Of a DNA stretch of 64,000 nt, positions 10,031 to 62,391 are shown piece after piece. Where the stretch lies: the NCBI GenBank assembly GCA_951406725.2, contig OX597823.1:40424001-40488000 (forward strand), given 5' to 3'. The notes below the pieces were generated by a model. That model made no database searches. It was not told the DNA's origin and saw only the letters and a program-made list of their open reading frames with translations. Position 1 is the stretch's first letter. Every line of letters begins with the position of its first letter. The position numbers and the translations under genes are program-made. The DNA is from Octopus vulgaris (Eukaryota).

Positions 10031-11527
10031 TGTTTCTTTATTAGCCACACAGGGCTGCACACAGATAGAACAAATTACAAGGTAGAGCTTTTCTTTTGAA
10101 GGTTTAAAAAAAAAAAAAAAATTAAATAAAAAATAAAATAAAATAAAAAAGGGGGGTCGATCAAAAGGGATCGTAAAAGGAGAGAAAGAGGACAAAAAAG
10201 GGGGGGGGGTTAAAAAAAAGGGGGAGAGGAAAAAAATTGATCAATAGGGATCGTTATCACAGAAATGTCAATATGAAGTGTAAAGGGGAGGACATGTGAA
10301 GTTTACCCGTGGAAAGAAAAGCCTACGGAAAAGACCACGGTAACCTCGGTCAATGAAGTCACATGTTATATTTCTTTTTTTTTTTTGCAAATAAGCAACT
10401 CTCTGTATTAATTTTTACGGTTCATAGAATCATAGTCAAGGTGGCTTCGTCATTCATACGTGCCATCCTTGCTACATTCACCCATCTTTTTTTAAAACAT
10501 TCACTAGACAAAACTTGCCTCTCTACTCTCACTTTTTTCTTCAAGTGATACTTGAAGAAGTTGATGAGAGATTGACCAGAGAGGAAAGTGTTTGTCTCTA
10601 ATCCTTTCAGACGCGTCCACCAGATACATTCTTTCGCCATAGCCACAAGTATGATAAAAATAGCTCTTCCTTCCCGTTTGAAGGAAGGAGGCGTGACGAT
10701 ATTAACGATAGACTCGGCGGATAAACCGACACGTCCCACACGTGACAGCAGTCGTTCGACATAAGCCCACAGGTGGGATATTGCTGGACACTGCACGATT
10801 GCGTGCAGAGCGGTTTCGTCGCTCTGCCCGCATCTCGGGCAGGTCGGCCCCGTGTTTCTCGAGCCATGCCTATAGAGCTTATCCCGAACGGGTAGCGCTT
10901 CTCGGTAGCACCGCCAGGCCAGGGATCTCTGGAAGTTGTCCATAGGTCCCGGGCCGAAAGTCGTTTGAAACAGGCGGGTCAGGTATTCCTCGTCGACGCC
11001 CAGGTTTGCCACGAGCTCGTCGTCGTACCTCCCCTCCACTAATCCCCTATAGAATGCTTTGGTTGTGTTGAAGTCACTCAAGGTCGACCCGGGACGGCAG
11101 AGTTGCTTGAGAGCAACGCGACACTCGCGGTGCCATTCGCCCTTCTTCGGCCTCTTTTTGATCCACGACTGTAGTTCGGTCATGGAGACGAGTTGCGGGA
11201 ATGTGTGCCTCACAAACGGCGACCACACCTGTTCACCGTCGTCTACATAGAGCCGGAGATGTCGCAGTCTCAGCGCGTGTCTGCGCATCATCAACCACGG
11301 CATGCCCAGCCCTCCTTTTAACGGGTGTTGACAGCAAATGGATCGCCTGACCATCGGGACGCATCCTTTCCACAAGAAGCGGAAGAGGATGCGTTCTAGT
11401 TTGGTGATGGTAGGGTCGGGACAAGGTACGACGGTCAGGCGGTAGTAGATGATGGACGCGATGTACGCGTTCACCACCTCCGCCCGACCTTTTAGGGACA
11501 GTTTCCTCTCGGCCCATTGCTGGGCGA
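10031..11527 (-). mobile_element. 5'-truncated L1/Tx1-clade non-LTR retrotransposon (ORF2 C-terminus plus 3' UTR)
   Basis: Uninterrupted frame with W..RKLSLKGR, FRFLW, GGLGMP, W..REALPV and CPRC..ETALHAIVQC zinc-binding motif; AATAAA at 10037-10042 followed by (TATC)n. Confidence 0.9.
10422..11527 (-). CDS. ORF2 remnant (post-RT region and zf-RVT CCHC); the first ~37 aa of the ORF track call are flank and microsatellite
   Basis: L1/Tx1-type motifs, about 368 codons without a stop, GC-richer than the flanks. Confidence 0.8.
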
Positions 11528-11905
11528 GAGATAGATACATACATACATACATACATACATACATACATACATACATACATACATACATAGATGGGGCAGT
11601 GAATAGCAACAGTGAAGTCACAGAAAATATGCCGACCATGATTTTTTAGGGATATGTTATATCCTCTTCTTCAGTGGGGTGTTAGGGATATGTTACATTC
11701 TCTTCAATAATGGAGTTTGATTTCAAAGGAGATTTGGCTGCTATTCTTTGCAGGCTGCCCTCGTACTTGCTCCATCAATATTGCAGTTAGTGTTGGAGGT
11801 GTGGGTCGTGGCTATGTGACGCAGTAGTGGTTTGTATGGGAACTATTTGAAATGTTTATGCATGCTACGACAGAAAAATATCCCATATTTTATGCACTCA
11901 TTTCT

Positions 11906-12501
11906 TAATTCTTTATTGCCCACAAGGGGCTAAACATAGAGGGGTCAAACAAGGACTGACAAAGGGATTAAGTCGATTACATCGACCCCAGTGTGTAACT
12001 AGTACCTAATTTATCAACCCCGAATAGATGGAAGGCAAAGTCGACCTCAGTGGAATTTGAACTCAGAACGTAATGGCAGGCGAAATATCTATTTCTTTAC
12101 TACCCACAAGGGGCTAAATTAAGATATGAAAAACAAGGACAGACAAACGGATTAAGTCGATTATATCGACCCCAGTGCGTAACTGGTACTTATTTAATCG
12201 ACCCCGAAAAGATGAAAGGCAAAGTCGACCTCGGCGGAATTTGAACTCAACGTAGAGGCAGACGAAATACCTATTTCTTTACTACCCACGAGGGGCTAAA
12301 CACAGAGGGGCAAACAAGGACAGACAAACGGATTAAGTCGATTACATCGACCCCAGTGCGTAACTGGTACTTAATTTATCGACCCCGAAAGGATGAAAGG
12401 CAAAGTCGACCTCGGCGGAATTTGAACTCAGAACGTAGCGTCAGACGAAATACCGCTAAGCATTTCGCCCGGTGTGCTAACATTTCTGCCAGCTCGCCGC
12501 C
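11906..12501 (-). mobile_element. SINE family A trimer (one head plus two headless units) with 16-bp TSD
   Basis: TTATGCACTCATTTCT at 11890-11905 and 12502-12517; three ~185-bp units. Confidence 0.9.
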
Positions 12502-13076
12502 TTATGCACTCATTTCTGTGACGCTACTAAACTTACACTGTTGACAATGAAGTCTCCCAGTGGCTACTGATTAACCGCTTGCGTTTCAGTGATCAATATC
12601 CTTGATAATGATGGACATCTTGCGTTTGATGCTGAAAAGTATTATTAACAAAGATAAATATAAGAGGAATTTTGCTGCAGTCTGTAGATGGTGTCGATTC
12701 TGGTAATGGAGGTGAAGAGGCTGTGTTTGTGGTGGTGGTAGTGATGATGATGATGATGGTATAGTTCCAACGATCGTAGGTACTGGTGGTGCTAATGAAG
12801 GTGACAGTGAGGTGACGACAAAGAAAAACTCATCTCCATTGGGTGTCTTTGAAGACAACACGATTTGTTAAAATTACTGAATGCCAGCTTTAAGACTACA
12901 ATTGAGATGGAACTTGTCTTCCAGTTTTAGAACCACCTAACGACACACATATACACACATACACACACAAACACGTAAATGTTCAGGTATGTGTGTGTCA
13001 GGTAAAGCCTGTAAATATGTGAGTTTAGTAAGTACCAGACGCGAAACTGTCGGTCTTTGAGTGGCTTGTATATACA

Positions 13077-21853: not shown

Positions 21854-22262
21854 CTAAGCATTGTAGTATTTGAAAGTATTAATAAGTTTATGTATACAGG
21901 ATGGTTTGAACTCTGACCTTTTGTTAATAAGATTGTGTTTGTCTTTGAATTTCAAGATGTTCAGGAGTTCTACACAGCATAGTTGGCATCCTGCTCTATT
22001 ATTTAAATAAGGTGCAGCTGATCCGATGATGGACCATCTGAGTTTGAAGCCTATGCATTTGTCTTTTAATTCCCAAATTCTTTTAGAGAGGGAGGTGCTG
22101 TTAGCCTTATGTCTATGTCTCAGCGAGGACCGGTGGTTGTAGTATCTGGATTTCCAGGAGGTTGAGCAACCAATATAGGTGAGTGTGTTAAACTGAGTAC
22201 TCACCTCACATGAGTATATTACGTTTTTCGCCCTACATGCGCCCTGCAGCGGGCACTCTGCA
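21854..22262 (-). CDS. Penelope-like (Naiad-type) GIY-YIG endonuclease domain, C-terminal fragment
   Basis: CPLQGAC..VIY..YIG..KSRY.NH..STSLS..W.LK..CQLC..E..INKRSE..CIH; open to its stop codon. Confidence 0.85.
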
Positions 22263-22301
22263 GAATCATACTGCATACGCTATATATATATATATATATA
22301 T

Positions 22302-27172: not shown

Positions 27173-27404
27173 TATTTCTTTACTACCCACAAGGGGCTAA
27201 ACACAGAGGAGACAAACAAGGCCAGACAAACGGATTAAGTCGATTACATCAACCCCAGTGCGTAACTGGTACTTAATTTATCGACCCCGGAAGGATGAAA
27301 GGCAAAGTCGACCTCGGCGGAATTTGAACTCGGAACGTAACGGCAGACGAAATACGGCAACGCATTTCGCCCGGCGTGCTAACGTTTTTGCCAGCTCGCC
27401 GCCT
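27173..27404 (-). mobile_element. Full-length monomeric SINE A
   Basis: Complete head to GTAAAGAAAT tail; degenerate TSD ATCAC..ATATCGTATA on both sides. Confidence 0.9.
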
Positions 27405-28019
27405 TAATCACTATATATCGTATACTAATCTCCTGATCAGTCTCTACGACAATGTACAAAATACACGGCTTCTTGAAAACGTACAATGTAATGCTTGAAA
27501 GAATCCTGATTTACTATATAATATGGTTAGAGTATTATACATACATGCATACATATATACATACATGAATATATAAACATATATTTCTATACTCTGATAC
27601 AAACGTATTTACATACATACATAATAATACATACATACATACATACATACATACATACATACATGAATATATAAACGCATATTTCTATACTCTGATAGAA
27701 ACGTATTTACATACATACATACATACCTACATACATACATATATACATACATACATACATACATACATACATACATACATACATACATACATACATGCAT
27801 GCATGCGTGCATATATACATACAAACATACATACATACATACATAAATACATAATACATACATACATGCATGCATGCATACACACACAGACATATACATA
27901 CATACATACATACATACATACATACATACATACATACATACATACATGCATACATACATACATACATGCATACACACATATATCGGAGTAAATGCGCTAA
28001 GCAGTGTTTACGTATAATC

Positions 28020-38745: not shown

Positions 38746-38813
38746 ATAATAATAATAATAATAATAATGATGATGATAACAACAACAACAACAACAACAA
38801 TAATAATAATAAT

Positions 38814-39258
38814 GCCCTGATGCAGTACCAGGCAGTGGCTTTCATGGCTTCTCATCCTAACTGATTGGAAGTGTTATCAAGTACATTGTTTTGTCTTGGT
38901 ATAAAAGATGGGCTACAACAAATATTCTGCGCAATAGCACAGATTTGCTTGTCAGTTGTTTGACCTTTAGCAGTTGAGCATATCTCTTAGTAGCTGACAA
39001 TATGTGCATCTCTGATCACGAGCAGAAGTGGTGGGGGAGCATCAAAGCCATGTGTTGAAAGGAATTCTTTAGGGTTTGGATAATTCACCTCTGAAAACAT
39101 GGGTGTTTGTCTTGATACGAGATCACTATTTCGCTCACATATGATTATGATGTATGTGCTTGGTGTACTCTTATCAGACGACTAGTCATAATGGGGATAC
39201 TGGGCTTTGTATATGTCACCCCTCTGTCACTTTCATGGCATACACTGCTCTTTCACAC
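38814..39258 (+). mobile_element. Element D, older internally deleted copy
   Basis: Same 5' start GCCCTGATGCAGTACCAGG after (TAA)n; about 110 bp deleted relative to 59262-59815. Confidence 0.85.
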
Positions 39259-39309: not shown

Positions 39310-39562
39310 ATTTGCTTGTCAGTTGTTTGACCATTTGCTTGTCAGTTGTTTGACCATTTGCTTGTCAGTTGTTTGATAAATTTGCTTGTCAGTTGTTTGA
39401 CCATTTGCTTGTCAGTTGTTTGAAATTTGCTTGTCAGTTGTTTGACCATTTGCTTGTCAGTTGTTTGATAAATTTGCTTATCAGTTGTTTGACCATTTGC
39501 TTGTCAGTTGTTTGAAATTTGCTTGTCAGTTGTTTGACCATTTGCTTGTCAGTTGTTTGACC
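39310..39562 (+). repeat. 11 tandem copies of ATTTGCTTGTCAGTTGTTTGA(CC), derived from an internal segment of element D
   Basis: Counted directly; the 11th copy continues into D sequence. Confidence 0.95.
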
Positions 39563-40193
39563 TTAACCAGTTGAGCATGTCCCTTAGTGGCTGACGATAT
39601 GTGCATCTCTGATCACGAGCAGAAGTAGTGGGGGAGCATCATAGCCATGTGTTGAGAAGGATTCTTCTCATGGCTTCTGATCTTAACTGATTGGAAGTGT
39701 TATCATGTACATTGTTTTGTCTTGGTATAAAAGATGGGCTACAGCAAATATTCTGCTCAATACCACAGATTTGCTTGTCAGTTGTTTGACCTTAACCAGT
39801 TGAGCATGTCCCTTAGTGGCTGACGATATGTGCATCTCTGATCACGAGCAGAAGTAGTGGGGGAGCATCATAGCCATGTGTTGAGAAGGATTCTTTGGGG
39901 TTTGAATAATTCACCTCTGGAAACATGGGTGTTTCGTTCAACGTCCTTAAACAACCCTTATTCAGGGACCTTTTGAGCGGGATGGGTTACTCGATCTGAA
40001 GAAAATTCTAACTGGGCTCCACCTGCAAGGTCATGTGCTGTTTATCTTGATATGAGGTCACCAACTCGCGCACATATGGTTGTGATGCATGTGCCTGGTG
40101 TACCTTTATCAGACGGGTAGTCATGATGGGTATATTGGGCTTCGTATATTTTACCCCAGTGTCACTTTGATGGCATGCTCTGCTCGCTCACTC
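39540..40193 (+). mobile_element. Element D, rearranged copy (duplicated internal segment plus near-full body)
   Basis: Internal D segment at 39540-39665, then a restart at TCTCATGGCTTC running to CTCACTC|AATAAT. Confidence 0.9.
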
Positions 40194-40236
<43 letters not shown>

Positions 40237-40560
40237 TACTAGCAGAGCCAGAGACAATGCCTGAATGGCTCACGAAGGGGAAAACCATCTTAATTCCCAA
40301 ATCAAATGAGACAGCAAAACCAGAAAACTACAGACCAATAACGTGTCTCCCTACAATGTACAAGGCATTTACTGCAGTGATATCGCAAAGGTTGAACAAG
40401 CACCTGGACGAAAACAACCTGTTTCCAGAAGAGCAGAAAGGATGCCGCAAAGGCTCATATGGCTGTAAAGATCAACTAATGATTAATAAAGCCATAACTG
40501 AAGACAGCCACAGAAAGAAGAAAGGCCTCAGTATGGCCTGGATCGACTACAAAAAGGCGT

Positions 40561-41829
40561 TTGATCCTCGAAACACTAGCCGTTAACAAAGTAGCACCAA
40601 CAATTATAAAATTCATAGAGCACTCTATGAATAAATGGCAAACAGTGCTACAGCTCCAAACAAAAAAGGGACTCATGAAAACCAAAGCCATCCCCATTAG
40701 AAGAGGAATATTTCAGGGAGACACGCTCTCTCCACTCCTTTTCTGCTTGACACTGTCACCGCTATCTGATATGCTAAATAGAACTGGATGTGGTTATAAA
40801 TGTTACGGCAAAACGATCAGCCACCTTTTATATATGGATGACCTAAAACTATACGCTGCAAATGACAAACAGCTGGAAACACTATTAAAGACAGTTCATG
40901 GATTTACCAAAGAAATAGATATGAAATTTGGATTAGAAAAATGCGCCAAAGTAACCATGAAAAGAGGAAAACTAGTTAAGAGTAGCAACATCACACTAGA
41001 TAAAACCAATGAAATAAAAGAATTAGACCAAAGCCAAACTTACAAATACTTAGGAATCCATGAACTAGATAAGACACAACACACACAAATGAAAGAGAAA
41101 ATAAAAAAAGAATATTATAGACGAGTTAGATCAATACTAAAAACAGAGCTCAATGCTAAAAACAAGATAATAGGTATTAACACTTTAGCTGTCCCAGTTA
41201 TAAGTTACAGCTACAATATCCTTAACTGGACACTAAATGAACTGACCAAAATAGATAGGAAAACAAGAAACATAATGACAGGATCTAGGATGCATCACCC
41301 AAAATCTGACATAGAAAGACTATATATACAACGTATAGAAGGTAGTAGAGGCCTTATACAGCTGGAAAACAACTATAAAATAACCACCATAGGACTGCAA
41401 AAATATCTACTTCAGAAGGAAGGAAAACTGATACAAATAGCGGCAAAACACGAGCAAAACAAAAAACTGTTCTCAGTATTTAAGGAAGCTGACAAATACA
41501 AACAAGAAATCATACCACCTAATAAATATGAAGAAGAAGAAGAAGAAGAAGATGAAGAAACAACAAAAGCTATAAAACAAATGAAATCCAAACTAAAAAT
41601 AGAACAGCAACGAACCATGATAAAACGATGGCAAGAAAAGCCTCTTCATGGTAAATACTGGACTAAACTAAACGCAAAAGAAATAGACAAAGAAAAATCC
41701 CAGCAATGGTTGAGAAGCTCAGGACTCAAAGCAGAGACAGAGGGATTTTTAATTGCAGCACGAGACCAAAGCCTCCCCACCAGAAATTACCAAAAACATG
41801 TAATGAAAAAAAAAGTAACTGCAGAATAA
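40561..41829 (+). pseudogene. Reverse transcriptase core segment of the frameshifted Dong-like ORF
   Basis: QGD-LSP and YMDD motifs; the expected SVPHSW-like segment is deleted just upstream. Confidence 0.9.
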
Positions 41830-42389
41830 GTGGAGATGGACAAGAAACGATAAATCATATTATCTCTGGCTGCCCAGTCCTGGCTAAGAATGAATATATT
41901 CACAGACATGACAGAGTTGGAACCTACATACACTGGAAGCTATGTCAACATTATGGAATAACAACAGAAAAAAGATGGTATAGGCACACACCAGAAAAGG
42001 TCACAGAAAACGAGAAAGCAACCATACTCTGGGATATGCCGATACACACAGATAGAGAAATTAAGGCCAACAGACCAGATATAGTTGTCAGAGATCATGA
42101 AGAAAAAAAATGCTTTCTAATTGATGTATCAATACCGGCAGATGACAACGTGTCTCTAAAAGAAATGGAGAAACTTTCAAAATACAAAGACCTAGAAATA
42201 GAGGTAATCAGAATGTGGAATCTAAAAACAGAAACAATTCCTATCATAGTACGTGCATTAGGCATGATAAAAAAATATTCAGACAAATACATAACAAAAA
42301 CACCAGGACTTACAAACACATATAACTTACAGAAAATTGCACTACTAGGCACTGCACACATCCTACGCAGAACACTTTCCATACAGTAA
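41815..42389 (+). pseudogene. Zinc knuckle and PD-(D/E)xK endonuclease segment of the same ORF
   Basis: CRIS..ETINHIISGC (second Cys replaced by Ser), HRHD, RPD, KY. Confidence 0.9.
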
Positions 42390-42499
42390 CCATCAGAGCA
42401 CCACAACAAATCACAGCACATACCTAAGGCACACAGAGCTACGCTCAGTAGTGAAGTGAAAGCACGCTATAAAACTAAAACTACTGAATAATGATTATG

Positions 42500-42553
<54 letters not shown>

Positions 42554-42554
42554 C

Positions 42555-43376
42555 TTTCTACTGTAGGCAAAAGGCCTGAAATTTTGGGGGAGGAGATAAT
42601 AGATTACATCGACCCCAGTATTCAAATGGTACTTAATTTATCGACCCTGAAAGGATGAAAGACAAAGTCGACTTCGGCAGAATTTGAACTCATAACGTAG
42701 CGACGTGTGAAATGCCATTACGCATTTTGCCCGGCGTGCTAACGATTCTGCCAACTCACTGCCTTCATAATAATAATAACAATAATAATAATAATAATAA
42801 TCCTTTCTCCTAAAGGCACACAACGCCTGAAATTTGGGGGAGGGGACTAGTCGATTATAACGACCCCACTGTTTTACTGGTACTTAGTTTATCAGCACTG
42901 AAATGTACAGACGGACGAAGTGCCGCTAAGCATTTTGTCAGGCGTGCTATCGATTCTGCTAGCTAATTGCCTTTAATGATTTCAAATTTTGCCGCACGGG
43001 CAGCAATTTTCGGAGAGAGGGTGAGTCCATTACATCGACCCCAGTGCTCAACTGCTACTTATTTTATCTACTCCGAAAAGGATGAAAGGCAAAGTTGACC
43101 TCGGGGGAATTTGAACTCAGAACGTAGCGGCAGACGAAATACCTATTTCTTTACTACCCACAAGGTGCTAGACACAGAAGGGACAAACAAGGACAGACAA
43201 AAGGATTAAGTCGATTATATCGACCCAGTGTGTAACTGGTACTTATTTAATTGACCCCGAAAGGATGAACGGCAAAGTCGACCTTGGCGGAACTTGAGCT
43301 CAGAACGTAACGGCAGATGAAATACCGCTAAGCATTTCACTCGGCGTGTTAACGATTCTGCCAGCTCGCCGCCTTC

Positions 43377-43429: not shown

Positions 43430-43647
43430 TAAAAAAAAATATTCAGACAAATACATAACAAAAACACCAGGACTTACAAACACATATAACATACAGAAAA
43501 TTGCACTACTAGGCACTGCACACATCCTACGCAGAACACTTTCCATACAATAACCATCAGAGCATCACAACAAATCACAGCACATACCCAAGGCACACAG
43601 AGCTGCGCTCGGTAGTGAAGTGAAAGCACGCTATAAAAATAAAACTA

Positions 43648-43650
<3 letters not shown>
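43430..43650 (+). mobile_element. Dong-like LINE 3' fragment in (TAA)n
   Basis: Near-identical to about 42267-42486, same ACTACTG|AATAAT end. Confidence 0.93.
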
Positions 43651-49050: not shown

Positions 49051-51766
49051 CTTTCACTCGGGTTTCATTTGCACAAGATATAGTACAGTGCTTTATCTTT
49101 GCAATCTTCCATCTTTCACAATCCTGACATTCTTACTTCCAATAATAGCGGTTCTGTGGCATTTTTTACATACTACGCTGTGTTGTTTTCTTCTGCTCTA
49201 ATGCTGTGTTTGCATCCTATAAGCCCTCTTACACCTCTTTTTCTTGGTACGTACAGTCTGTGTCAATTTTGGGGTGGAGCGTCCCATATCTAGTCAGCAT
49301 CTTCCTTGTCTTTCTGCCTAAGCTGTTTAGTTCGACTACTCTCCGTGCGATTACCCCTGCTCTAAAACTTATTCCGTCCATTTAATTTCCATTTAAGGAT
49401 CAGTCTCAGTCTGCGCAAGTACTCTACCTTCTTATTTCTTTCTCCATCAATATACTCATTTCCAGTATCCCCAAGTACTTATAGCCCGTCGCTTCCATCT
49501 GCTTCATAACCTCCCCCGACGGCATCGATAGCCCGTCCATACATTTGATTTTGCCTCTCTTCAAGACTAACACACCGCACTTTTTCAGCCCGAACTCCAT
49601 TCTGATATCAGCACTGAAAGTATACACCTTATCAACGAGGGAACTGACATGGGATTCATCTGTACCATAAAGTTTGAGGTCATCCATGAATAACAAGTGG
49701 TTGACTTTTTGTTTGTGGCTCTTGAATACATGCATAATCTTTACTTTCCTCAGAACCAGTGTTCGTGGTATCATACACAGTACAAAGATCAGTGAGGACT
49801 GGCAGTCCCTTTGGAAGAAGCCTTTTCTGATTTCTATTGTCCCTAATCTTCTTCCATATGCTGTCAGTTCCGTCCTCCACTTCGCCATACTTTTTCCAAG
49901 CAATCGCTCAACATTCGATGTAATACCAAATTGGTTCATACATTCCATAATCCAAGAATATGGGATCATATCGTACGCCTTACGATAATCGATCCCTGAC
50001 ATGGATAAGTTAGTTTTCCTCTTCTTGTAGTCTCTAAGTACAGTTTTGTCTATCAGGAGTTGATCCTTGGTACCTCTGCAATTACGCTTGCAACCCTTCT
50101 GCTCATGTGGCAGGATTCCATTTTTTTCAAGATGTTCGTACATTGACTCTGCGAGTATTCCAGTCAATAACTTCCACATAAGTGGTAAATAGGATATCGG
50201 CCTGTAATTGTCTACCGTATTGCCTTTTTCGATGTTTTCTCAAGCACAGTACTGACCTACCCATTCTCAACCACTCTAGTGTTACTTGGTCGGCATTTAA
50301 AATGGTGTTTGAGTTGTGCAGCTATTCGTGCATGACATTAACCAAATCTTTTGATCCAGTAGCCTTGAGCACCATCTGGTCCCGAGGCCTTCCAGTTGCC
50401 CATTTTTTCTATTGATTGCATTCACTTCCCTAACTGAAATGACTAGTTTTGCCTGTTTTGGGCAGGCTACTGTTTGTTTCAGTTCTTGCAACCATTCCGC
50501 GCCCTTCTTGTGCTCCTTGTCTTTGCTCTAGATGCCATTCCAAAACCTTTGACTTTCAATGTTATCTAGTATCAAATTTTCACCTGTACACTGTCCATTT
50601 ATTTCTTTGTAGAATCCCCTCTGATCTACTTTGAATAATCTATTCTGCCGGAATCCCTTCGTTCTTTGGTCGTACCTTACCATCTTTACCTTCTTTGCAA
50701 CGAGGCGCAATTTCAGTTCCTCCATTATCACTTTCAGGACCTTTTTTCAATATCATACTTCCTTTTCAGAGCCCTTTTTGTTCGCATTAAATCTCCCCTT
50801 CTCTTTTTCGATATAACACAGAAATATCCTTCGAGAGCATATCTAACCGCACCTGTGTTCTTCTTTTCCACCATGGATCTTTTCTTTTGTTATTCCCATT
50901 ATATTTATTTTTCTTGACAGCAACACCCACATTTTCCGCTCTAACAACACTTGCTGCCTTGATCAAATTATTTGTTTCTGTGATATTTTTGATCTGATGT
51001 TTTTCAGTATTTCATTGACATTTTTCGTCTCTTGGTTCAATTGCCACCCATCAACCTTTTTAAGGCTACAAATAATGTCGCTATCGTTCTCCTGTAGTTT
51101 TGCTTTCATTGTCGTAGATTGCCTTTTGCCCATCTGTCATGTCACTATTACTTATATTGTCTTCTTCCAGACCCTCTATGTGTCTCTCATCGAACAAGCT
51201 ATCACTGTTCCTTTCCTGTCGTTTACAAGAGATCTCACTTCTGTTTTCTGCTAAGAGATTACTTTTATCAGTAAGAACTGTATTTTCATCGTTTCCTCTA
51301 CTGCTCTTTTTCAATACCCGTCTTTTGATAGCTTCGATCTCTACTTCTGTGAATCAATGATTTTTTTTCTTATTGCTCTGGCTTGACCATATAATCTCTA
51401 TTCGTGAGTTGAAATAATCCTCTTTCTCCCCATTGATCATACCTACGTTATCGATAATATGAACACCATTTTCGTCTACAGGGTTGGTCAAAGTAATAAC
51501 ACTCCATGACCATAGCATTGACTTGTTTGTTCCATCTACGCCATGTGTGCTGGTCCCTTGCTGGATTAACAATAGGCTGGAGTCGGACCAGTATCTCTGA
51601 GCCTGCCGGATGCAACACTGTCACCAACAAGCGCTTCAGTTATTCACAATATTTTGTTTTTCATTGTCACTCATATGAGGTAGAGATTATCAGGTTGCGC
51701 AATTACCAGTGTTTTTATTGTGACACCATCAATCAGGACATGGCGAGATTCCAATCGCTTCCTTTC
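49050..51766 (-). mobile_element. Older, second R4/Dong-clade LINE family with its 5' end retained and 3' part lost
   Basis: RRWNKQVNAMVMECYY N-terminus, [31 protein letters not shown]; the 5' end abuts (TAA)n; many stops. Confidence 0.88.
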
Positions 51767-51861
51767 ATTATTATTATTATCATCACTAATATTATTATTT
51801 TCATTTTTTTACTATTTGTCATTGTTAATATTTCCTCTGATGCGATATGAATTCTGGCTTA

Positions 51862-59172: not shown

Positions 59173-59260
<88 letters not shown>

Positions 59261-59261
59261 T

Positions 59262-59815
59262 GCCCTGATGCAGTACCAGGCAGTGGCTCTCATGGCTTCT
59301 GATCTTAACTGATTGGAAGTGTTATCATGTACATTGTTTTGTCTTGGTATAAAAGATGGGCTACAGCAAATATTCTGCTCAATACCACAGATTTGCTTGT
59401 CAGTTGTTTGACCTTAACCAGTTGAGCATGTCCCTTAGTGGCTGACGATATGTGCATCTCTGATCACGAGCAGAAGTAGTGGGGGAGCATCATAGCCATG
59501 TGTTGAGAAGGATTCTTTGGGGTTTGAATAATTCACCTCTGGAAACATGGGTGTTTCGTTCAACGTCCTTAAACAACTCTTATTCAGGGACCTTTTGAGC
59601 GGGATGGGTTACTCGATCTGAAGAAAATTCTAACTGGGCTCCACCTGCAAGGTCATGTGCTGTTTATCTTGATATGAGATCACCATGTCGCGCACATATG
59701 GTTGTGATGCATGTGCCTGGTGTACCCTTATCAGACGGGTAGTCATGATGGGTATACTGGGCTTCGTATATTTTACCCCAGTGTCACTTTGATGGCATGC
59801 TCTGCTCGCTCACTC
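59262..59815 (+). mobile_element. Element D, full length (554 bp)
   Basis: Flanked by (TAA)n on both sides; same termini as the other copies. Confidence 0.93.
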
Positions 59816-59867
<52 letters not shown>

Positions 59868-60807
59868 GTAATAATAACAATAATAATAACAATAATTGGT
59901 AGACATCAGTTATTATTTATTGATTACAAAAAGACTATCTCTTCTAACAGATGTTTCTGTTTGCGCTATTTTGGGTATAATCAGGCTTAATTATTACAAT
60001 AATAATAATTATCACTGTTAATAATTTTACCATTTAAACAGTGGAACATCAGCAGAGCGGAAAAATAAAGAAAAAACAAAAAAAGAAAAAGAAGGAGAAA
60101 AAGAGAAAATTAGGATATACCAATTGATGTTACAAGCTATCCCTCTGAATACCTTTCGACCGACTGAAAAATTTAGTTATACAATTAGAATAGTTATAAT
60201 ATTTAGTGGTACATACCTATCTACAAGGTGGGGTGGGGTTAACTGTTATCATATTAAGTTCCGTAACTCTCGGTATTTTTCTTTTTACTTTTTATTTAAC
60301 GACTTAACTAAAATGCGCCAACAAAAATGCTCCAACAGAAACAGCCGTTAGAGGATTGTAATCAATAAACAATAATTGATGGTTATCAATTATCAATTTT
60401 ATCTCCATTTTCTTATTTTTTCTTAAATATAGATAAACTTCGGTTTAGCCCTTTCCTTACCTATCATTTATAAGCATTAATACTAACTAGCAAATCTACC
60501 TATCTACGATGGAGGCATAATTTGAAGGAGGGAAGTCATAACAGCAGTATGTATTGAAAAATGTGTAAATCGATTTTAATATGAATATGATTACAAAACC
60601 TCTTTGTAGACAATATTTCGTGTGTGGTCGTCACTAATTTTCAAATTACTGGAGTCCGTTACCCTATTCATAGCGACGTATAACTGGCTGTGTGTAAACA
60701 TCGGAGTGGGCAAAAATGCATCTACACGATCTAAAGTCTGGACCTGTGCCTTGTTTGCTGTAAATGAGAATACCAGTTTTACAGGAAACTACACTTGTCT
60801 TGATTTT

Positions 60808-61618: not shown

Positions 61619-62262
<644 letters not shown>

Positions 62263-62321
62263 GAGTGAGAGAGCAGTTCATGCCATCAAAGTGACACTGG
62301 GGTAAAATATACGAAGCCCAA

Positions 62322-62323
<2 letters not shown>
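62263..62323 (-). mobile_element. Element D, 3'-terminal ~60 bp only
   Basis: Reverse complement of the D 3' end, embedded in (TTA)n. Confidence 0.9.

Positions 62324-62391
<68 letters not shown>

Follow-up and report, generated by a model that had tools for sequence, protein, structure and literature searches.

A high-copy, non-coding retroposon in the TAA microsatellites of Octopus vulgaris and its probable dependence on Dong/R4 LINEs

In the silkworm B. mori, the LINE Dong sits in TAA repeats and self-cleaves at the TAA junction, as described in PMC3774820. Among molluscs, R4-Dong elements are reported to be almost confined to cephalopods (PMC10294476), and an annotation of the O. vulgaris genome holds 51 Dong-R4 consensuses together with 1,279 unclassified SINE consensuses (PMC13282606). 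The prevailing view is that a target-specific LINE whose endonuclease is of the restriction-like type recognises its own 3' UTR.

The element described here, D, is a 556-bp non-coding repeat. A young full-length copy lies in a 64,000-nucleotide stretch of O. vulgaris DNA, called the window below. D shares with the Dong/R4 LINEs (B. mori Dong and octopus Dong-R4) the TAA target, the orientation, the 5' truncation, the reiterated 5' junctions and overlapping ages. Unlike them it lacks an ORF, and no homology to Dong ends could be detected in it.

Several kinds of non-autonomous retroposon invite comparison. The R2 and R2/R1 SIDEs of Drosophila, as portrayed in PMC3414825, are non-coding, site-specific and dependent on the enzyme of a LINE, as D probably is, and like D they are not Pol III SINEs. 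According to the same source, SIDEs occur only in rDNA and have retained an HDV-like ribozyme at the 5' end and the 3' UTR of a LINE. In contrast, neither part was detected in D, the target of D is a microsatellite, and its tens of thousands of copies are dispersed. The bipartite non-autonomous LINEs (RIME, NARTc, and the RTE and Vingi derivatives) are likewise short, non-coding, probably transcribed by Pol II and LINE-dependent. Unlike D, they keep both ends of the LINE in the description of PMC5786205. The sources that this account (Kojima 2018) names for them are RTE, Ingi, Vingi and R2 only, and R4 is absent from those named.

Judged by the SINEBase definition as given in PMC3531059, D has the size and copy number of a SINE (short, interspersed, at least 100 copies). 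It is less than 1 kb long, has more than 100 dispersed copies and a simple-repeat tail, and is divided into subfamilies. However, it lacks a head that is 60% or more identical to tRNA, 5S or 7SL RNA, and it is target-specific. The Sadhu elements of Arabidopsis resemble D in being non-autonomous retroposons without a small-RNA head. They differ from it in being low in copy number, poly(A)-tailed and not target-specific. In octopus, three tRNA-derived retroposons were reportedly described in a paper of 1994.

In a body of mostly non-subscription literature, no account was found of D or of any Dong-dependent non-autonomous family. The weight of this negative is limited, since the O. vulgaris annotation already holds so many Dong-R4 and unclassified SINE consensuses. 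The sequence of D has probably been catalogued as an unclassified family, with no mechanism attached. Four 19-base words of D had no match in the texts of papers, nor in four of the eight supplements of PMC9115989. D may possibly be a retroposon of independent origin that is specific to a microsatellite and present in high copy number, a combination that was not found described for the R4 clade.

The copies of D in the window are listed in Table 1 with the Dong pieces among which they lie. The initial annotation had D begin at 59262 with a length of 554 bp. The element is real, but the two bases before 59262 belong to it, because reiterated heads restart at 59260. All five copies that had been noticed (38814, 39540/39666, 52508, 59262 and 62263) were recovered, as were the 5' start common to three of them and the 3' end and register common to four. 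The copy reduced to its 3' end measures 62 bp, where 60 bp had been proposed. The statement that the copies lie in TAA tracts in one orientation holds relative to the tract and fails relative to the window, where the fifth copy is on the minus strand. In the debris upstream of the copy at 39666, the reiteration begins at 39310 and the D 130-256 piece at 39540. No long ORF was found in D, and alignment to the Dong of the window (family A) found no similarity, both as first described.

Table 1. Element D, its junctions and Dong/R4 pieces. Positions are those of the window unless a locus is named.
Feature	Position	Strand	Remarks
D, older copy, 93%	38812..39256	+	internal deletion of about D 296-392; 3' end worn
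5' junction debris of a D insertion	39310..39666	+	about 11 units of 23 bp (D 130-152), followed by D 130-256
D 27-554, 98.9%	39666..40193	+	TAA tract, then Dong, downstream
Dong/R4-type LINE, family A, 5'-truncated	40235..42486	+	RT (RVT_1, 2.4e-15) and C-terminal endonuclease region; ends in TAA
Dong family A, 3' fragment	43434..43650	+	in TAA
D, full-length, older subfamily, 96.6% identity	52506..53061	+	TAA tracts on either side
(TAA)n tract, 5' junction of D at 59260	59174..59259	+	
D, full-length young copy, 556 bp	59260..59815	+	start set from reiterated heads
(TAA)n tract, 3' junction of D at 59815	59816..59896	+	
Dong family A, 3' fragment	61724..62228	-	in TAA
D, 3' 62 bp alone	62263..62324	-	flanked on both sides by TAA tracts; directly upstream of a same-strand Dong piece
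Dong 3' UTR fold, examples	L009:2769-2812 (-), L002:2520-2562, L078:7648-7690, window 43578-43621		

D is a dispersed, young, high-copy family. An unbiased sample of 100 unselected 10-kb stretches (1 Mb) of the 2.8-Gb source genome was searched with nhmmer and gave 18 matches, representing 17 copies and 6,849 bp (0.68%). Extrapolated to the genome, this is about 48,000 copies, with a range of roughly 28,000-76,000. The first 27 bases of D have 4,946 exact matches in the genome, with reiterations and satellites counted in. All 40 scored candidates of a genome search are full-length or nearly so, 99-100% identical and spread across many chromosomes. Among 65 near-full copies, one group is very young, and diagnostic changes mark at least two others that are older.

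Public sequencing runs under five organism labels contain D. In one run, three variants reach 31-39% of depth, against less than 3% in three other runs, which hints at a separate recent amplification. Tandem arrays have also arisen from the 5' part of D; their periods are about 29, 32, 68, 139 and 141 bp. D-derived arrays are located on C27 (about 9.8-11.8 and 27.9-28.6 Mb) and at C28:19653544, C28:24122675, C2:97099306 and C1:30148145.

The ends of D are unequal. Among the 17 copies of the unbiased sample, the 3' end is reached in 15 and the 5' start in five. Every one of the 15 copies with an intact 3' end continues into a TAA-type tract, of which two are degenerate (hand count; the 3'-junction fractions of D rest on samples). 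Yet tracts of four or more TAA make up only 0.39% of each strand in the same 1 Mb, so the association of D with TAA is not due to chance. At the 5' junction, a tract is present in 11 of the 17 copies, a short tract in two and none in four, again counted by hand. Copies truncated to 60 bp also have a tract at their 5' junction.

The same picture is obtained from the 29 top copies, with those of the window excluded. All 29 end at the same base and are followed by a tract, and 19 have one 5' junction in common (hand count). Downstream of TAA tracts, D occurs 44 times in sense and three times in antisense. An empty-site comparison was attempted for one locus (L017), where no contig spanned the site. 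It had been proposed that D sits mostly in TAA, and the majority of the sampled copies do so. The view that D is a non-autonomous retroposon which inserts site-specifically, undergoes 5' truncation and has no tRNA head is likewise borne out by target, orientation and junctions. The minus strand of D can also be read as a SINE with an ATT tail, a reading ruled out by the polarity of truncation and by folding.

The LINE in the window was assigned to R4/Dong on the basis of its RT, for which the best PDB matches are R2 proteins, a C-terminal endonuclease-type motif (by reading) and its TAA target. Full-length members of this family, A, are about 4.1 kb long. Across the fetched loci there are about 12 types of Dong 3' UTR, and families A, B and Dp have copies at 99-100% identity. 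A candidate helper for D is present in these young, autonomous families. Family A is marginally favoured for the role, with B and Dp equally young. Several 5'-truncated Dp copies (L254, L255 and L258) have uninterrupted ORFs of about 1,000 aa, consistent with recent activity. An old, broken Dong-like LINE of another family lies at window 49100-51860 on the minus strand and starts at a TAA tract.

Six Dong families have a 3' UTR fold in common, consisting of two helices and a loop rich in G some 30-50 bases ahead of the tract. In their alignment 76% of cells are paired, and 28 two-sided changes provide evidence of covariation. A variant of the fold with longer bulges is seen in families E and H.

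Dong and D are found in the same surroundings. After TAA tracts, Dong occurs 85 times in sense and six times in antisense. In the loci centred on Dong, D has 19 matches, each on the same strand as the Dong; nine of them come from one segmental array. Dong coding sequence lies within 600 bp of four of the 17 unbiased D copies, where 6.8% would be expected. Such co-location is also expected from any shared preference for TAA. The 5' junctions of both elements carry tandem repeats of the element's own first 15-30 bases, and truncation points carry them too. Reiterated heads were seen in four of 29 full-length D and, by hand count, in eight of 12 full-length Dong A. An automated count gave 4/44 for D, 9/85 for Dong and 3/110 for control SINE ends, and the feature is therefore weakly specific. 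The earlier proposal that a Dong-type enzyme moves D thus stands as far as shared target, orientation and junctions are concerned, and is circumstantial in naming Dong as the enzyme.

The RNA of D offers few points of comparison with known families. A search of Rfam inside D gave no family at E<=1 and no tRNA, 5S or SRP match at E<=10. ARAGORN reported no tRNA in D, although the tool also missed a tRNA-like control unit. The Pol III A and B boxes, described at the outset as not clearly present, do not occur as an A+B pair near the start of D. Together with the lack of a tRNA match in Rfam, this agrees with the non-tRNA origin that had been suggested. Because D has no tRNA-like head and contains three internal T4 runs, transcription by Pol II is more likely than by Pol III. 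A descriptor of the HDV ribozyme, run without a positive control, matched neither D nor Dong A, and no Rfam ribozyme was found in D.

Folding is specific to one strand. Compared with 100 shuffles, the plus strand folded better than all of them (z -3.15); the minus strand gave a z of 0.28. The signal comes mostly from the two ends, with local z of -1.7 to -2.1, and no 110-nt window falls below -2.1. A covariation term of -0.24 kcal/mol over 25 copies amounts to no covariation. At paired sites, 13 of 19 recurrent changes keep the pair, which is about the chance level for transitions. The suggestion that D arose from a structured ncRNA therefore found some support in the whole-length z and none in Rfam, in the 110-nt windows or in covariation.

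Parts derived from a LINE were sought at both ends of D and in its interior. Against 14 representatives of the Dong 3' UTR, no alignment was convincing (best p 0.04, uncorrected), and the 5' 600 bases of eight longer Dong copies (A, B, Dp and partial C) gave no match. A covariance model, R1, was built on the fold of the six families and finds Dong ends across the unbiased 1 Mb. It misses D and also the held-out Dong families E and H, so such models are family-bound. A second model, R2, was made from families E and H; it recovers an H copy that had been held out, and misses D. A motif descriptor of the Dong 3' UTR had no match in D, although it missed Dong A too.

Searches for coding remains were also negative. 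Pfam on the six frames of D, with stops read as X, gave nothing below E 0.12, and with profiles built from pieces of the Dong ORF the scores of D did not exceed those of its reversed sequence. In 65 copies of D, no Dong protein fossil was found in any frame. One minus-strand frame of D looked by eye like an RT thumb, a likeness that was dropped. By these comparisons D appears to have no LINE-derived 5' or 3' part among the Dong families sampled.

We lean towards the reading that D is a non-coding, high-copy retroposon retrotransposed in trans by the RT and restriction-like endonuclease of Dong/R4, with no LINE-derived end of its own. That D depends on Dong in some way, with or without such an end, is likely. 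A few source copies would give rise to an RNA with a defined 5' end, made by Pol II more likely than by Pol III. This RNA would read into the downstream tract and terminate in UAA repeats. The Dong protein would then nick a TAA tract and prime on the UAA repeats of the D RNA, perhaps aided by 3' stem-loops. Truncated 5' ends would result from early stops, and reiterated heads from restarts at the 5' junction. It may be suggested, tentatively, that octopus Dong/R4 enzymes have a relaxed RNA recognition and move RNA that has neither a LINE end nor a Pol III head, steered by the terminal UAA.

The lack of a sequence link between D and any helper counts against Dong, and R1/R2-type elements are described in PMC3414825 as requiring their own 3' UTR. 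The four unbiased copies with no 5' tract, and the two in which it is short, weigh on the same side. A sequence link could have decayed: D might be an old, internally deleted, SIDE-like bipartite derivative of an unsampled or extinct Dong, moved by the same enzyme with ordinary stringent recognition, and its 3' stem-loops a diverged Dong 3' UTR. Drosophila SIDEs may differ by 25% from their parent in the account of PMC3414825. The comparison took in about 12 UTR types and the 5' regions of four families, as against the 51 Dong-R4 consensuses in the annotation (PMC13282606), and R1 proved blind to two Dong families. Some 60-100 bases before its 3' end, D even has a long helix whose loop is rich in G and which is Dong-like by eye. 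This likeness failed the motif descriptor, however, and D matches no Dong UTR, 5' region or 3' UTR model tested. Nor did the 65 copies yield the protein fossils that an internally deleted LINE might have left, and such a descent for D is unlikely.

Movement by a LINE other than Dong has to be considered, since Dong is not alone in its association with TAA. An abundant SINE, presumably tRNA/CORE-like, also abuts TAA tracts in this genome, and a tRNA-like unit that lacks a 5' tract has TAA at its end. A TAA-tailing LINE of the I/Nimb, RTE or L2 type could land in tracts by pairing of its tail, and the I element terminates in TAA repeats (PMC3747384). However, a 5' tract accompanies even the 60-bp copies of D, and the TAA-ending coding elements found were Dong-like, save for family K, which has no assigned class. 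This makes another LINE quite improbable. The copies might also be retro-pseudogenes of one structured host ncRNA gene with an external promoter, which would suit the fixed 5' end and the strand-specific folding of D. Against this are the absence of an Rfam family and of covariation, and the successive subfamilies and the run-specific set of variants, which fit a selfish lineage. The upstream flanks speak to the same question. D copies with non-TAA bases before the start were selected (137 and 272 matches) and 43 of them examined. In 42 of the 43 a tract lies within 350 bp, with only pieces of D or a few extra bases between, and no foreign upstream sequence is shared among the 43. A unique promoter-like flank was seen in none of them, a partial sample, and an origin from a host gene is very improbable. 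With no parent sequence upstream, D is a unit with its own 5' end and not the tail of a LINE. If D were the 3' UTR of some long, autonomous LINE that tends to be truncated at one hotspot, its 5' truncation would be accounted for, and one type of copy does lie behind old Dong coding sequence (L149). That case is a single segmental array in which a decayed Dong encloses D 286-556. The 4,946 exact starts without a common upstream extension also go against the random 5' ends expected of a LINE tail, and the idea is largely refuted and barely credible.

If D is moved in trans by Dong, several consequences follow. With a partner that occupies about 0.7% of the genome and in which no LINE end can be recognised, the rule by which R4/Dong recognises RNA becomes directly testable. 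Should relaxed recognition be true, D would be natural proof that a LINE with a restriction-like endonuclease inserts a heterologous RNA of 550 bases at a defined repeat, and it bears on the use of such enzymes for site-directed insertion. Should an unsampled Dong instead have given rise to D as an old SIDE, the case would be a smaller one, yet still new for R4. D also helps to explain why insertions in the TAA microsatellites of octopus are clustered and nested, and it is a source of young presence/absence markers.

Other repeats were seen in the window and at TAA tracts elsewhere. In each unit of a segmental tandem array at C14 74.89-75.07 Mb (L239-L246), a decayed Dong that contains a truncated D precedes a piece of Dong C. 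Family K (L160:1240-1361 and L171) ends in a TAA tract. A 70-base tRNA-like unit ending in TAA (L103, L129, L169 and L265) often stands in an inverted-repeat context, which we take to be Penelope-like. The abundant SINE lies at window 11909-12505, 27173-27405 and 42552-43376. Its 5' end often abuts TAA tracts, it forms 184-bp tandem arrays, and the tRNA/CORE-like character that we assume for it is read on the minus strand. On the minus strand of the window there are also a 407-aa L1/Tx1-like piece with zf-RVT (10425-11645) and a GIY-YIG-like, Penelope-type piece identified by reading (21857-22279).
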